Shown here piece after piece: positions 3,003 to 5,689 of a DNA stretch of 5,689 nt. A program made the position numbers and the translations under genes. The notes beneath the pieces are model-generated. The model had not been told where the DNA came from, made no database searches, and worked only from the letters and a program-made list of their open reading frames with translations. This stretch comes from a virus (Duplodnaviria > Heunggongvirae > Uroviricota > Caudoviricetes), in IMG/VR virus record IMGVR_UViG_2579779116_000017; one strand, 5' to 3'. How positions within the stretch are numbered: the first letter of the stretch is position 1; each line of letters begins with the position of its first letter.

Positions 3003-3272
3003 ATGAGCGAACAGTACCTGATAACGCTCGACGAGTGGAAACCCAAACGGTTCAGTCTCCCAATAACAAACACTACCCTGGTGAAATACGGAAAACTAGG
3101 ATACATCGTTCCAAGACCACAAAAAATTCGAGGGCGTTGGCTGATAGATCGCCGGGCAGTATTTGTTGGACCTGGTGAAACGGGAATTGCGCCAGAAATT
3201 CATACTGGCGATGATGATGCACTGAAGGAGATTTTAACTCATGTCACCGAGGCCACGAAAAAACAGCACTGA
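3003..3272 (+). CDS. xis: Excisionase / excisionase-like DNA-binding protein (89 aa)
   Basis: Small ORF immediately upstream of and overlapping the integrase gene, as in lambda. ATG 3003 is preceded by GGAG at 2991-2994 with an 8 nt spacer. The N-terminal sequence MSEQYLITLDEWKPKRFSLPITNTTLVKYGKLGYIVP resembles the excisionase-like family as I recall it. The track start GTG 2994 is less likely. Confidence 0.7.
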   Translation: MSEQYLITLDEWKPKRFSLPITNTTLVKYGKLGYIVPRPQKIRGRWLIDRRAVFVGPGETGIAPEIHTGDDDALKEILTHVTEATKKQH

Positions 3273-4359
3273 CGTAGCCGGTCTTTACGAAAAGTTTGAT
3301 CGCAGAACTGGCAGGGTTTACTACCAGTATAAAAACCCTGTGACTGGAAAATTTCACGGTCTCGGAACAGACAAAGGCAAAGCAGAAAAAATCGCTTCCA
3401 CAGCCAATCAGCGAATAGCTGCAGCAGAAGCTGAATATTTCATGCGCAAAATTGATGAAAGTCCGTCAGCAACAAAACGTCGGGGTATCAGATTAAAGGC
3501 ATGGGTTGATCGATATCTGAAAATACAGGACGCGCGACTGAAAAATGGAGATATTGCAGCTACAACTCACAAAGAAAAAGCCCGAATGGCTGCATACCTG
3601 GTTTCCCGTCTGGGAAACCACCCATTGAAAGAACTGGAAGTAAGAGACTTTGCATTAATACTGGATGAGTGGCTGGATAAAGACATGGTCAGCACAGCGA
3701 GAGTAAATCGTGGATTATGGGTTGATATTTATAAAGAAGCACAGCATGCAGGGGAAGTTCCTCCTGGATGGAATCCTCCGGAGGCCACCCGCAAACCGAT
3801 CCCTAAAGTCAGCAGAGCCAGACTCACCCTGGAAGACTGGCAAAAAATTTATAATGCAACGCCAGAAAAACACTTTATCCGTAACGCAATGCTTCTTGCG
3901 ATTGTTACTGGTCAGCGCCGTGATGACATTTGCCACATGCGTTTTTCAGATGTATGGAACGAACACCTGCATATCACCCAAGGGAAAACCGGAATGCGTC
4001 TGGCGTTACCGCTTACGCTACGCTGTGATGCCATTGGGATATCGCTAAAAGAAGTGATTGATGGATGCAAGGACAGAATATTGAGTCCATACCTGATTCA
4101 TAGTCGGCACCAGAAACAACCAAAACCAATGAGTAAAGATAACCTGAGCGACTACTTTGCTAAAGCGCGGGATCTGGCAGGAATAACTCCACCAGCAGGA
4201 AAAACACCACCAACATTTCATGAACAACGTTCCCTGTCAGAACGGCTGTACCGAGCACAGGATGTCGATACAAAAACATTACTGGGGCATAAAGTCCAGG
4301 CAACCACCGATCGCTATAACGATACTCGAGGTCAGGAATGGGTTAAGTTGGTTGTTTGA
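3241..4359 (+). CDS. int: Lambda-family tyrosine site-specific integrase (372 aa)
   Basis: Conserved catalytic residues line up with lambda Int: R in IVTGQRRDD, K in QGKTGMRLALP, H-x-x-R in TFHEQRSLSERL, H in LLGHK, and Y in TTDRYNDTRGQEW. The N-terminus (YYQYKNPVTGKFHGLGTDKGKA) resembles the lambda Int arm-binding domain. Strong RBS AAGGAG at 3225-3230, 10 nt before ATG 3241. The gene overlaps the xis 3' end by 32 nt. Confidence 0.95.
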   Translation: MSPRPRKNSTDVAGLYEKFDRRTGRVYYQYKNPVTGKFHGLGTDKGKAEKIASTANQRIAAAEAEYFMRKIDESPSATKRRGIRLKAWVDRYLKIQDARLKNGDIAATTHKEKARMAAYLVSRLGNHPLKELEVRDFALILDEWLDKDMVSTARVNRGLWVDIYKEAQHAGEVPPGWNPPEATRKPIPKVSRARLTLEDWQKIYNATPEKHFIRNAMLLAIVTGQRRDDICHMRFSDVWNEHLHITQGKTGMRLALPLTLRCDAIGISLKEVIDGCKDRILSPYLIHSRHQKQPKPMSKDNLSDYFAKARDLAGITPPAGKTPPTFHEQRSLSERLYRAQDVDTKTLLGHKVQATTDRYNDTRGQEWVKLVV

Positions 4360-4385
4360 CAAAAATAACCATCCGGGATTATAGT
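4356..4385 (+). promoter_or_regulatory. Near-consensus sigma70 promoter (TTGACA-N18-TATAGT) overlapping the int stop codon
   Basis: Exact -35 hexamer TTGACA at 4356-4361, then an 18 nt spacer and TATAGT at 4380-4385 (5 of 6 matches to TATAAT). Predicted transcription start is around 4392. Confidence 0.45.
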
Positions 4386-4391
4386 CTGCGC

Positions 4392-4468
4392 ACGCCAGCA
4401 AAATCTGGCGTCGGGATTGGCGTCCCGGATAGAAACCGCGACAGACACACGCCGCGAGTGTGTTTTTT
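4392..4468 (+). ncRNA. Candidate small RNA (~75 nt, three hairpins) bounded by the promoter and an intrinsic terminator
   Basis: Hairpin 1: CGCCAG-caaaat-CTGGCG (4393-4410). Hairpin 2: CGGGA-ttggcg-TCCCG (4412-4427). Hairpin 3 is the terminator. No RBS or plausible start codon lies inside. Not matched to any sRNA I know, so this is purely a structural prediction. Confidence 0.3.
4445..4468 (+). terminator. Rho-independent terminator (int-operon terminator and/or sRNA 3' end)
   Basis: ACACAC (4445-4450) pairs with GTGTGT (4458-4463) around a 7 nt loop GCCGCGA, followed by a T-run at 4463-4468. The stem is short (6 bp), so strength is moderate. On the - strand no U-run follows. Confidence 0.5.
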
Positions 4469-4567
4469 ATTGTCGTATGCGCACGCACATCTGAATTATG
4501 GTGGGCTGTGTGGGGGCACCGAAAGGTGCGCCGGTTGGTTTCCCGGTTACGCCAACCCTGCACAGTT

Positions 4568-4598
4568 CACCACCAGACGATTGGCGTCGTCGGTGGTG
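4568..4598 (+). other. Long stable stem-loop (12 bp with one bulged A, hexaloop TTGGCG) in the int-distal part of the intergenic region
   Basis: CACCACC (4568-4574) pairs with GGTGGTG (4592-4598). The inner stem is GACGA (4576-4580) with TCGTC (4587-4591), and the loop is TTGGCG (4581-4586). Same loop sequence as hairpin 2 of the candidate sRNA. Confidence 0.4.
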
Positions 4599-4629
4599 AG
4601 TTATTTAGAAACCACCCGAGGGCGTCATT

Positions 4630-5184
4630 ATGACAACTCAAATCTCTGTTGAAACTCTCTCCCCGATCACTCATAACCAGATCCCTGTTATTACCACTGA
4701 ACTTTTGGCGCAGCTTTACGGTACAGAAGCGATTCGCATTCAGCAAAATCACAAACGCAACTCGGATCGCTTTGTTGAGGGAAAGCACTTTTTCAAAATT
4801 GTGGGTGAGGAGCTAAAAAATTTGCGACTATCTTTAAGAGAGTCACAAATATCTCCCAAAACCCGCTCGCTCATCCTCTGGACAGAACGCGGAGCAGCCC
4901 GCCACGCCAAAATGCTGGAAACCGATCAGGCGTGGGAAGTGTTCGAAAAACTGGAAGACTGTTATTTCAATAAGAAACAACCTCCAGCATCGCCGCAAAC
5001 CACATCAGTTGCCGGTTGTTCGGTGTTGATCCATTTCAATAGCCACGGTCAGGTTGAGTTCACGGAAAAAGTCCCAGCCGACGCAATGGTGTGCACCCTG
5101 GAGCGTTTTAAGTTTTATCTGGAACAGCAAGGCTGGATAGTTGCCCGTAAGGAGCAACTGTTAGAAAGGTTAATGTCGCTTTAG
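4630..5184 (+). CDS. Phage regulatory protein with N-terminal Bro-N/ORF6N/Rha-like (antirepressor-type) DNA-binding domain (184 aa)
   Basis: ATG 4630 is preceded by GAGG at 4619-4622 with a 7 nt spacer. The N-terminal region ITTELLAQLYGTEAIRIQQNHKRNSDRFVEGKHFFKIVGEELKNL...LILWTERGAARHAKMLETDQAWEVFEKLEDCYF matches the conserved pattern of the ORF6N/Rha family as I recall it. The C-terminal ~70 aa are not recognised. Confidence 0.8.
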   Translation: MTTQISVETLSPITHNQIPVITTELLAQLYGTEAIRIQQNHKRNSDRFVEGKHFFKIVGEELKNLRLSLRESQISPKTRSLILWTERGAARHAKMLETDQAWEVFEKLEDCYFNKKQPPASPQTTSVAGCSVLIHFNSHGQVEFTEKVPADAMVCTLERFKFYLEQQGWIVARKEQLLERLMSL

Positions 5185-5191
5185 CTAATGC

Positions 5192-5215
5192 AAAAACCCC
5201 GGCATAGCCGGGGTT
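5192..5215. terminator. Bidirectional Rho-independent terminator between convergent genes
   Basis: GC-rich 7 bp stem CCCCGGC (5197-5203) with GCCGGGG (5207-5213) and loop ATA. It is flanked by AAAAA (5192-5196), which gives a U-run on the - strand transcript, and by TT on the + side. It sits between stop codons at 5184 (+) and 5222 (-). Confidence 0.7.
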
Positions 5216-5221
5216 CGGAGA

Positions 5222-5689
5222 CTAATCTTGATCAGGTTCCTGCTTAGAATAATGTTTTCCAACAATAAATGCCGTAACCAATGCAACAAGATCTACTGAA
5301 ACGAGTGTTACAGCAAGACCTGTTTGTCCCCTCGCGCCAAAAAAGACGGCTGCCAGTATGATAATCAGCGCAATACAGAAAGCCATTTTCTGACCATTTC
5401 TTGTGATCTTTATACTATCAGCGACTGTTTTATGGCGATGAGCTTGCTCTTTTTCCGTCAATTCAACGAGTCGATTTGCAAGCCCAGGAATCAATTGCTC
5501 ATACTCTTTCAGCATTGATGGCGGAGGAACCGGCCCCTGAAAATGCTGGCAAACAATGGCTCGCCCTTGCGGGCTATCCAAAACCCGATTTAAAACCTCT
5601 GGATTCTCGATTACTCGAGAAACCAGTTCGTTATCTTTTTGTTCTTCACTGGTGAGTTCAGCATTCTCACTTTCTTTTTGATCTGGCAT
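5222..5689 (-). CDS. Small membrane protein (155 aa): acidic soluble N-terminal domain plus C-terminal two-helix transmembrane hairpin
   Basis: ORF begins at the window edge (reverse complement ATG at 5687-5689) and stops at 5222. The C-terminus has two hydrophobic segments, MAFCIALIIILAAVFFGA and LAVTLVSVDLVALVTAFIVG, separated by RGQTG. The N-terminus is Glu/Asp-rich. Promoter and RBS are outside the window. Confidence 0.7.
   Translation of the reverse strand: MPDQKESENAELTSEEQKDNELVSRVIENPEVLNRVLDSPQGRAIVCQHFQGPVPPPSMLKEYEQLIPGLANRLVELTEKEQAHRHKTVADSIKITRNGQKMAFCIALIIILAAVFFGARGQTGLAVTLVSVDLVALVTAFIVGKHYSKQEPDQD

Follow-up and report, generated by a model that had tools for sequence, protein, structure and literature searches.

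A promoter-to-terminator unit behind a phage int gene is an IsrK-family RNA and, very probably, the 5′ module of a mobile c4-type antirepressor-control cassette

What is encoded by the short stretch that directly follows int in this tailed-phage DNA? The window (the whole 5,689-nt stretch that was analysed, IMG/VR record IMGVR_UViG_2579779116_000017) carries, in order, dicB, DUF1482, a gene for an 835-aa protein with a 3′-5′ exoribonuclease domain, xis, int, an ORF6N gene and DUF2335. From the letters alone, an initial annotation had proposed a promoter overlapping the end of int, an RNA of about 75 nt running from 4392 to 4468, and an intrinsic terminator about 80 nt downstream of the promoter, and had been unable to match the RNA to any known sRNA. 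Such a match does exist. The covariance-model search that the initial annotation had suggested for 4392-4468 returns the Rfam family isrK (RF01394, E 7e-15) over the full length of the model, and the orthologous RNA of the Salmonella prophage Gifsy-1 is 77 nt long with the same ends. Scanned against Rfam as a whole, the window gives three matches above the gathering score, all of them full length and on the + strand (Table 1), of which those to isrK and c4-a1b1 overlap each other. Thus, the unit behind int is the already known IsrK with its ends correctly placed; the blind reading arrived at the precise ends of an RNA from a curated sRNA family, and there is no new element here. isrJ was not found in the window.

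Table 1. Positions in the window of the RNA, pairing-site, promoter and gene features discussed in the text.
Feature	Position	Strand	Details
int	3241-4359	+	stop TGA 4357-4359 inside the -35
-35 TTGACA, predicted isrK promoter	4356-4361	+	consensus scan; holds the int stop TGA 4357-4359
-10 TATAGT	4380-4385	+	18-nt spacer; TATATT in most relatives
c4-a1b1 (RF03163) match	4379-4431	+	51.9 bits, gathering 46.7, E 2.8e-11, full length
IsrK-family small RNA, 77 nt; also 5′ leader of the isrK-C4-ant read-through transcript	4392-4468	+	RF01394
isrK (RF01394) match	4392-4468	+	73.4 bits, gathering 50, E 7.4e-15, model 1-77/77
IsrK hairpin 1	4392-4411	+	7 bp, loop CAAAAU
IsrK hairpin 2	4412-4427	+	site a1 in loop and 3′ side
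a1 UUGGCGU	4417-4423	+	loop and 3′ side of IsrK hairpin 2; complementary to C4 a′
b1 GAAACC	4432-4437	+	IsrK single strand; complementary to b′
IsrK intrinsic terminator	4447-4468	+	stem ACACGC/GUGUGU, loop CGCGA, U-run
C4-type antisense RNA (Gifsy-1 STnc1160/'orf45' region)	4494-4577	+	RF01695, 72.5 bits, gathering 45, E 3e-13
33-codon ORF, Gifsy-1 orf45 counterpart	4498-4599	+	conserved AUG; stop 4597-4599
b′ GGUUUC	4537-4542	+	C4 hairpin-2 loop
a′ ACGCCAA	4549-4555	+	C4 single strand, 3′ of hairpin 2
a2 UUGGCGU	4581-4587	+	second copy of a target, downstream of C4
b2 GAAACCA	4608-4614	+	3 nt upstream of ant Shine-Dalgarno
ant Shine-Dalgarno GAGGG	4618-4622	+	sequence
ant, ORF6N-domain antirepressor (AnrP homologue)	4630-5184	+	PF10543, E 6e-23; start ATG 4630
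DUF2335 gene	downstream of ORF6N gene	-	window annotation

The predicted structure is that of the family. The minimum-free-energy fold of 4392-4468 (-28.1 kcal/mol) consists of two 5′ hairpins, as had been described from the sequence, followed by the terminator, and it equals the Rfam consensus; taken by itself, the 77-mer has a modest fold z-score of -2.0. Hairpin 1 is 100% paired across 31 distinct relatives, with four pairs changed on both sides. The proposed terminator is likewise found, as a hairpin whose stem forms at 4447-4452/4458-4463 or alternatively in a longer register at 4443-4465, with a T-run that reaches up to 4468. The window-specific T at 4459 was considered as a change that weakens this terminator and was rejected, as the fold moves to the longer register at -9.1 versus -7.7 kcal/mol. 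No credible ORF lies within 4392-4468, in line with the initial annotation. Two longer frames were rejected as genes: a 98-aa TTG ORF (4356-4652), which begins in the -35 hexamer, and a 57-aa GTG ORF (4460-4633) both run across structured RNA with covarying helices.

The promoter elements are those originally reported, an exact TTGACA and a TATAGT that agrees with the consensus at five of six positions, with the int stop codon inside the former. With 11 of 12 consensus matches this is the best site in the window by consensus scan; only two promoter-like sites occur in the 5.7 kb, versus 6.9 expected in shuffles. The -10 ends 6 nt before the first base of hairpin 1. The TTGACA hexamer alone is no evidence for a promoter, because it belongs to the 3′ end of int even where no cassette follows: in about 1374 E. 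coli genomes without the cassette, int likewise ends in TTGACAA. More telling is that the 31 distinct relatives, which cover four upstream contexts (behind int, behind ninE in Stx phages, behind antQ in Gifsy-1, and a further flank), all retain TTGAC and TATA(G/T)T with 18 nt between them. The sequence of the spacer and all DNA upstream vary among these contexts, while the geometry is constant. In comparative terms, the fixed distance from -35 to -10 in every other cassette context is the evidence for a promoter. We predict from sequence that a sigma-70 promoter at 4356-4385 transcribes the IsrK-family RNA, and the copy in the window is presumably expressed.

What such an RNA can do is known from Gifsy-1, where experiments revealed IsrK as an RNA of 77 nt (PMC2330248, Padalon-Brauch 2008). 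Most transcripts from the Gifsy-1 isrK promoter end at the IsrK terminator, and read-through gives a translationally silent isrK-orf45-anrP mRNA, in whose inactive structure A the central stretch of IsrK is base-paired to the 3′ portion of 'orf45' (PMC4825925, Hershko-Shalev 2016). The short IsrK works in trans, independently of Hfq, by binding the same 'orf45' sequence, and in reporter fusions it raises orf45/anrP translation 114- to 171-fold; single point mutants of IsrK abolish this trans-activation, and G28/G31 have compensatory mutants with C162/C159 (PMC4825925). The AnrP antirepressor induces Gifsy-1 and thereby the toxic antiterminator AntQ, and a stable processed RNA, STnc1160, comes from the 'orf45' region (PMC4825925). 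The 77-nt RNA, the read-through, the more than 100-fold trans-activation and the a1:a′ compensatory mutants have been shown in Gifsy-1 only. By analogy, we propose that transcripts of the copy in the window usually end at their own intrinsic terminator as well. The initial annotation had left two roles standing side by side, a trans-acting sRNA and a terminated leader; given the IsrK homology and the Gifsy-1 data, both fit.

The two loci are close. Positions 4330-4660 of the window are 87% identical to the Gifsy-1 isrK locus, an alignment that covers the -35, the -10, both hairpins and the terminator. The published numbering (PMC4825925) maps onto the window with +1 at 4392, A107, where the first AUG of 'orf45' begins, at 4498, G28/G31 at 4419/4422 and C159/C162 at 4550/4553. 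Both RNAs are 77 nt long and agree fully in hairpins 1 and 2, and they share promoter geometry and terminator, although the -10 reads TATATT in Gifsy-1 and TATAGT in the window. The downstream neighbours are the same, namely the C4/STnc1160 region and an ORF6N antirepressor, that of the window being 53% identical to AnrP. Also shared is the complementarity between IsrK and C4 (4417-4423 with 4549-4555), including the mutationally proven G28/G31 pairs. In contrast, the Gifsy-1 cassette follows antQ, whereas that of the window follows int at the prophage end; and the b sites are GAAACC/GGUUUC in the window and UCACCG/CGGUGA in Gifsy-1, which suggests a different specificity class.

A further difference concerns the reading frame between IsrK and the antirepressor gene. 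In Gifsy-1, the mechanism requires orf45 to be translated, and the stop of orf45 and the start of anrP overlap in the sequence AUGA (PMC4825925). The 33-codon ORF of the window has no such overlap and stops 33 nt before the ATG of ant. Among the relatives, the ORF from the invariant AUG runs from 14 to more than 45 codons. We rejected the 'orf45' counterpart as a conserved coding sequence, given that both its length and its frame vary among relatives; the orf45 region is kept as RNA, and a similar remark on the peptide was made by the authors of the Gifsy-1 study (PMC4825925). Since the AUGA overlap is missing and the length of the ORF is variable, the Gifsy-1 orf45 coupling step is not transferable unchanged. 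That this step is not conserved favours a core mechanism of the antisense/decoy type, as in phage P1.

The order of the cassette in the window is IsrK, a C4 antisense RNA, the sites a2/b2, and the ORF6N antirepressor gene. What Rfam calls C4 is the stretch that yields STnc1160 in Gifsy-1. The sites a1 and b1 in IsrK duplicate a2 and b2 near the ribosome-binding site of ant, so that the same two targets occur once upstream and once downstream of the C4 segment, whose a′ and b′ are complementary to all four of them. In some relatives (b-types UACGGA and AAAAAGG) b2 overlaps the ant Shine-Dalgarno sequence, while in the window it falls 3 nt short. For the read-through RNA (4392-4645), the predicted minimum-free-energy fold pairs a1/b1 with a′/b′ and thereby resembles the inactive structure A of Gifsy-1. 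In the light of this arrangement, IsrK reads as the terminated a1b1 leader of a c4-type module.

Whether these complementarities are conserved was judged from relatives. A scan of IMG/VR for relatives of Ant returned 80 loci, 62 of which carry the cassette, and the alignment comprises 31 distinct sequences, including the window, Gifsy-1 and E. coli FORC_082. Both a1:a′ and a′:a2 extend over 8 columns and pair in every sequence (100%); each shows double-sided changes at 4 pairs and in 44 cells. When the partners are slid by 1-3 columns as a control, only 11-50% remain paired (11-44% for a1:a′). The C4 fold itself is 100% paired with 10 covarying pairs. Five a-types occur (GGCGU, GGCAU, GGAAC, AGGAAC and AGCAC), along with six b-types (GAAACC, UCGAAAC, UACGGA, UCACCG, AAAAAGG and UCAACC), each of the latter with a matching C4 loop. 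Duplex energies of whole segments hardly differ between cognate and non-cognate b sites (-11.0 versus -9.9 kcal/mol), because GC-rich stems dominate; b-site specificity was scored by the longest complementary run, with the C4 loop alone. By this measure, the runs are 6-9 nt with the cognate b2 versus at most 6 nt with non-cognate loops. Pairing of b1 is poorer than that of b2 in many relatives, where GAGACC either forms a G-U pair or is reduced to a run of 3-4 nt. In 17 sequences the closing A-U pair of hairpin 2 is lost; the 3′ base changes and the pairing with a′ is kept. The hairpin thus sacrifices its closing pair to keep the a′ pairing, which indicates that the long-range pairing is the stronger constraint. 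Within the alignment, the sites in IsrK, in C4 and downstream of it are seen to co-vary three ways, and it is family membership, architecture, promoter conservation and this covariation that sequence comparison establishes for the cassette.

Given these observations, we consider it very probable that IsrK is the 5′ module of a mobile antirepressor-control cassette of the P1/P7 immI (c4) type. In the read-through transcript, the C4 segment would pair with a1/b1 in cis, or a processed C4 would pair with a2/b2; either mode of pairing would keep ant untranslated. The free short IsrK would pair in trans with the a′/b′ sequences of C4 and would remodel or titrate it, which would turn ant translation on, and the antirepressor would then inactivate the prophage repressor and so promote induction. 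The best supported reading is that IsrK is both a leader and a trans-acting RNA that releases ant translation through pairing with a′/b′ of C4. For the copy in the window, IsrK may act as a decoy (sponge), with C4 as the actual repressor. Decoy action is suggested by the P1 architecture, with remodelling of the mRNA as the published alternative. A simple sponge model is at odds with one finding from Gifsy-1, in that constitutive expression of STnc1160 strengthened IsrK toxicity and did not weaken it (PMC4825925).

The short RNA could instead be a by-product of attenuation, with the terminator limiting read-through into C4-ant and the 77-mer having no function in trans. The layout does fit a terminated leader, the a1b1 leader of P1 has a hairpin and U-run with its targets annotated as 'putative' and with no trans role, and b1 is degenerate in many relatives. 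However, Gifsy-1 IsrK supplied in trans lifts anrP translation more than 100-fold and loses this ability through point mutations (PMC4825925), and the a1:a′ complementarity stays perfect through five sequence types, which a mere terminator would not need. We regard pure attenuation as improbable and retain the reading in which IsrK also acts in trans.

The comparison with P1 bears directly on the type of module. The P1 record has the same order, with the promoters P2c4/P1c4, a1, b1, c4 RNA, a2, b2, icd and ant. The window shares with P1/P7 immI the C4 fold, in which the loop of hairpin 2 holds b′ and the unpaired stretch 3′ of that hairpin holds a′, and it also has an antirepressor as the regulated output. 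The P1 leader and c4 RNA match RF03163 (51.0 bits) and RF01695 (68.8 bits), respectively. On the isrK model, the P1 leader, which includes a hairpin and U-run before c4, scores 35 bits, below the gathering score of 50, whereas the a1b1 leader of the window has an efficient-looking terminator and reaches that score. The two systems also differ downstream: icd lies between c4 and ant in immI, and b2 is found at its ribosome-binding site, while in the window ant follows directly, with no icd, and b2 adjoins the Shine-Dalgarno sequence of ant itself. Moreover, the ORF6N Ant of the window and P1 Ant1 are unrelated in sequence (BLASTP E 0.14). To judge from these comparisons, the window holds a c4-type regulatory module that drives a different antirepressor, and not an orthologue of the immI operon. 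An explicit link between IsrK and P1 c4 was not found in the searchable literature; Rfam holds isrK and c4-a1b1 as overlapping families.

The distribution of the cassette shows how it relates to int. It occurs in 1875 of 5426 complete E. coli genomes, about a third, in up to 5 copies per genome, and in 295 phage records, mostly of Stx phages. The exact IsrK hairpin 23-mer is also present in Enterobacter, Lelliottia, Leminorella and Shigella, always adjoining C4. The closest relative is another IMG/VR contig, with 98.6% identity over 4350-4640, and among complete E. coli genomes the highest identity over 4300-4700 is 93.5%. Of the 1384 complete E. coli genomes that have the 3′ end of int with its TTGACAA, only 10 run on into isrK. 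In the common form of int without the cassette, homology ends at 4363 and potC begins about 165 nt later; in the form seen in the window, a cargo of about 1.8 kb, made up of isrK-C4-ant, the DUF2335 gene and a small ORF, fills the space from the int stop to the att arm. E. coli RSHH22, M8 and FORC_082 are examples of lysogens with this prophage, and after integration the cassette is still located between int and the potC/att junction. Elsewhere it sits behind ninE or antQ, not int. Conservation among prophages with the same int, which had been suggested as a test of the element, is in fact low; the cassette is nevertheless conserved in other contexts, and the test misleads because the element is a separate mobile cassette. 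Judged by this distribution, the cassette moves with ant rather than with int. The space between int and att can take up the cassette as cargo, the region of the int stop then being reused as its -35.

These data also bear on two readings that tie the element to int. In the first, the hairpin and U-run are primarily the terminator of the int operon, or a retroregulator of int that works like sib. It is the first terminator past the int stop, with nothing between, and an int read-through RNA would include the structure and probably stop there; lambda tI/sib, to which a dual role had been likened initially, similarly has a hairpin and U-run downstream of int. Unlike lambda sib, however, the element of the window has its own promoter and is mostly unlinked to int. 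The whole unit of promoter, hairpins and terminator is found behind ninE in Stx phages and behind antQ in Gifsy-1, and it is missing from 1374 of the 1384 E. coli genomes in which int ends in this way. As the cassette follows ninE or Q elsewhere, the terminator belongs to the cassette, and as integration does not part the cassette from int, which stays on the same side of the att junction, a sib-like mechanism loses its basis. We therefore take the likeness to tI/sib to be very unlikely to reflect function, and prefer a terminator that is part of the IsrK cassette. A putative passive stop of int read-through at this terminator is plausible.

In the second, the repeats (GATTGGCGTC twice and AGAAACC twice) would be DNA sites of attP, either arm-type sites of Int or IHF sites. 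The region does lie directly after an int whose protein has a lambda-type arm-binding domain, and direct repeats are indeed present. Against this, the repeats change together with a third site, their reverse complement, that lies within a structured RNA, the cassette is also found far from any int, the att junction lies about 1.3 kb beyond, and the native int-att spacer does not contain these repeats. A scan of the whole window found no tRNA or tmRNA, and an att core derived from a tRNA is therefore ruled out for the region. We give the attP reading practically no credence: the -35 is supplied by the end of int, and the element is not attP but the IsrK cassette.

As a structural analogue of IsrK, the CI RNA of phage P4 with seqA/seqC has been named (PMC4825925). 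There too, a processed leader RNA pairs with duplicated complementary sites up- and downstream in its own transcript. Unlike the cassette of the window, P4 CI brings about premature transcription termination of replication genes, and neither a sequence match nor a covariance-model match to it was found in the window.

Beyond this locus, the cassette would be a prophage-induction switch, Stx phages included, and its classes of pairing sites may govern cross-talk between prophages. More tentatively, IsrK-family RNAs might in general be the released a1b1 leaders of C4 modules, acting as anti-antisense decoys, with the a/b classes gating cross-activation between prophages and int read-through adding decoy; we hold this broader proposal to be possible rather than likely. 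If it were true, the switch would consist of three RNAs (decoy, antisense and target), and at least five a-variants and at least six b-variants could combine into many specificity classes, which would decide which co-resident prophages cross-activate each other's antirepressors. The fusion to the int 3′ end would then let int read-through deliver decoy, coupling excision to antirepressor release. The peculiarities of the copy in the window are local and modest: its place behind int, a b-site class unlike that of Gifsy-1, and an ant gene without AUGA coupling.

Downstream of IsrK, a full-length C4-type antisense RNA starts 25 nt 3' of the IsrK terminator in the window, and across the 31 relatives (distinct cassette sequences) its fold contains 10 covarying pairs and is 100% paired. 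Though this RNA lies outside the coordinates of the possible small RNA proposed in the initial annotation, it belongs to the same system as IsrK. The frame corresponding to Gifsy-1 orf45 varies among the relatives from 14 to more than 45 codons; because its counterpart in the window stops 33 nt upstream of the ant start, the AUGA overlap is absent here.

The a1b1 leader of phage P1 itself (L084 18231-18312) scores 35 bits against the isrK covariance model, below the gathering threshold of 50, and the match takes in the hairpin and U-run immediately 5' of c4; an IsrK-like terminated leader may thus be ancestral to c4 systems. In a variant cassette (compared loci L036-L046, e.g. L040 2038-2500, and L048), isrK, C4 and a2 are retained, an unrelated stretch of about 250 nt stands in place of b2 and the SD, and Ant has a longer and different N-terminus.

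Window position 4459, on the 3' side of the stem of the IsrK terminator, is T, while all 30 other distinct relatives carry C. With T, the predicted fold is not weakened but moves to a longer, 8-bp register (-9.1 versus -7.7 kcal/mol). Directly beside b1, a palindromic CGCG...CGCG (4437-4440 and 4453-4456; window 4437-4456, plus strand), also listed by the consensus scan as a minus-strand terminator-like hairpin, could form a putative alternative to the terminator stem. Since this possible rival stem adjoins b1, C4 binding at b1 might influence IsrK termination.

The isrK -35 re-uses the int stop region (window 4356-4363). Of the 1384 complete E. coli genomes that have the TTGACAA-containing int 3' end, only 10 continue into isrK. 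In the window, cargo of about 1.8 kb separates the int stop from the att arm beside potC.

Features of the window and loci bearing on them
Feature	Position	Strand	Details
C4-type antisense RNA, full length	4494-4577	+	Rfam RF01695, 72.5 bits
Counterpart of Gifsy-1 orf45	4498-4599	+	33 codons
Cargo, int stop to att arm			isrK-C4-ant, DUF2335 gene, small ORF
Loci bearing on int end and cargo	window 4356-4363; L100 1560-1740; L083 7970-8290
Strong hairpin CCCCGGC-ATA-GCCGGGG	5197-5213	-	minus-strand T5 run; -18 kcal/mol on minus strand
Gene for 835-aa protein	434-2941	+

Beyond ant, the strong hairpin probably ends transcription of the DUF2335 gene on the minus strand (5222-5689) and, if bidirectional, as is possible, that of ant too; it is not among the consensus scan's terminator listings for the window. 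The one domain recognised in the 835-aa protein, at its C-terminus (residues 654-825), is an Rv2179c-like 3'-5' exoribonuclease, and the gene is interrupted or frameshifted in E. coli FORC_082 and O157:H7 strain 2159.
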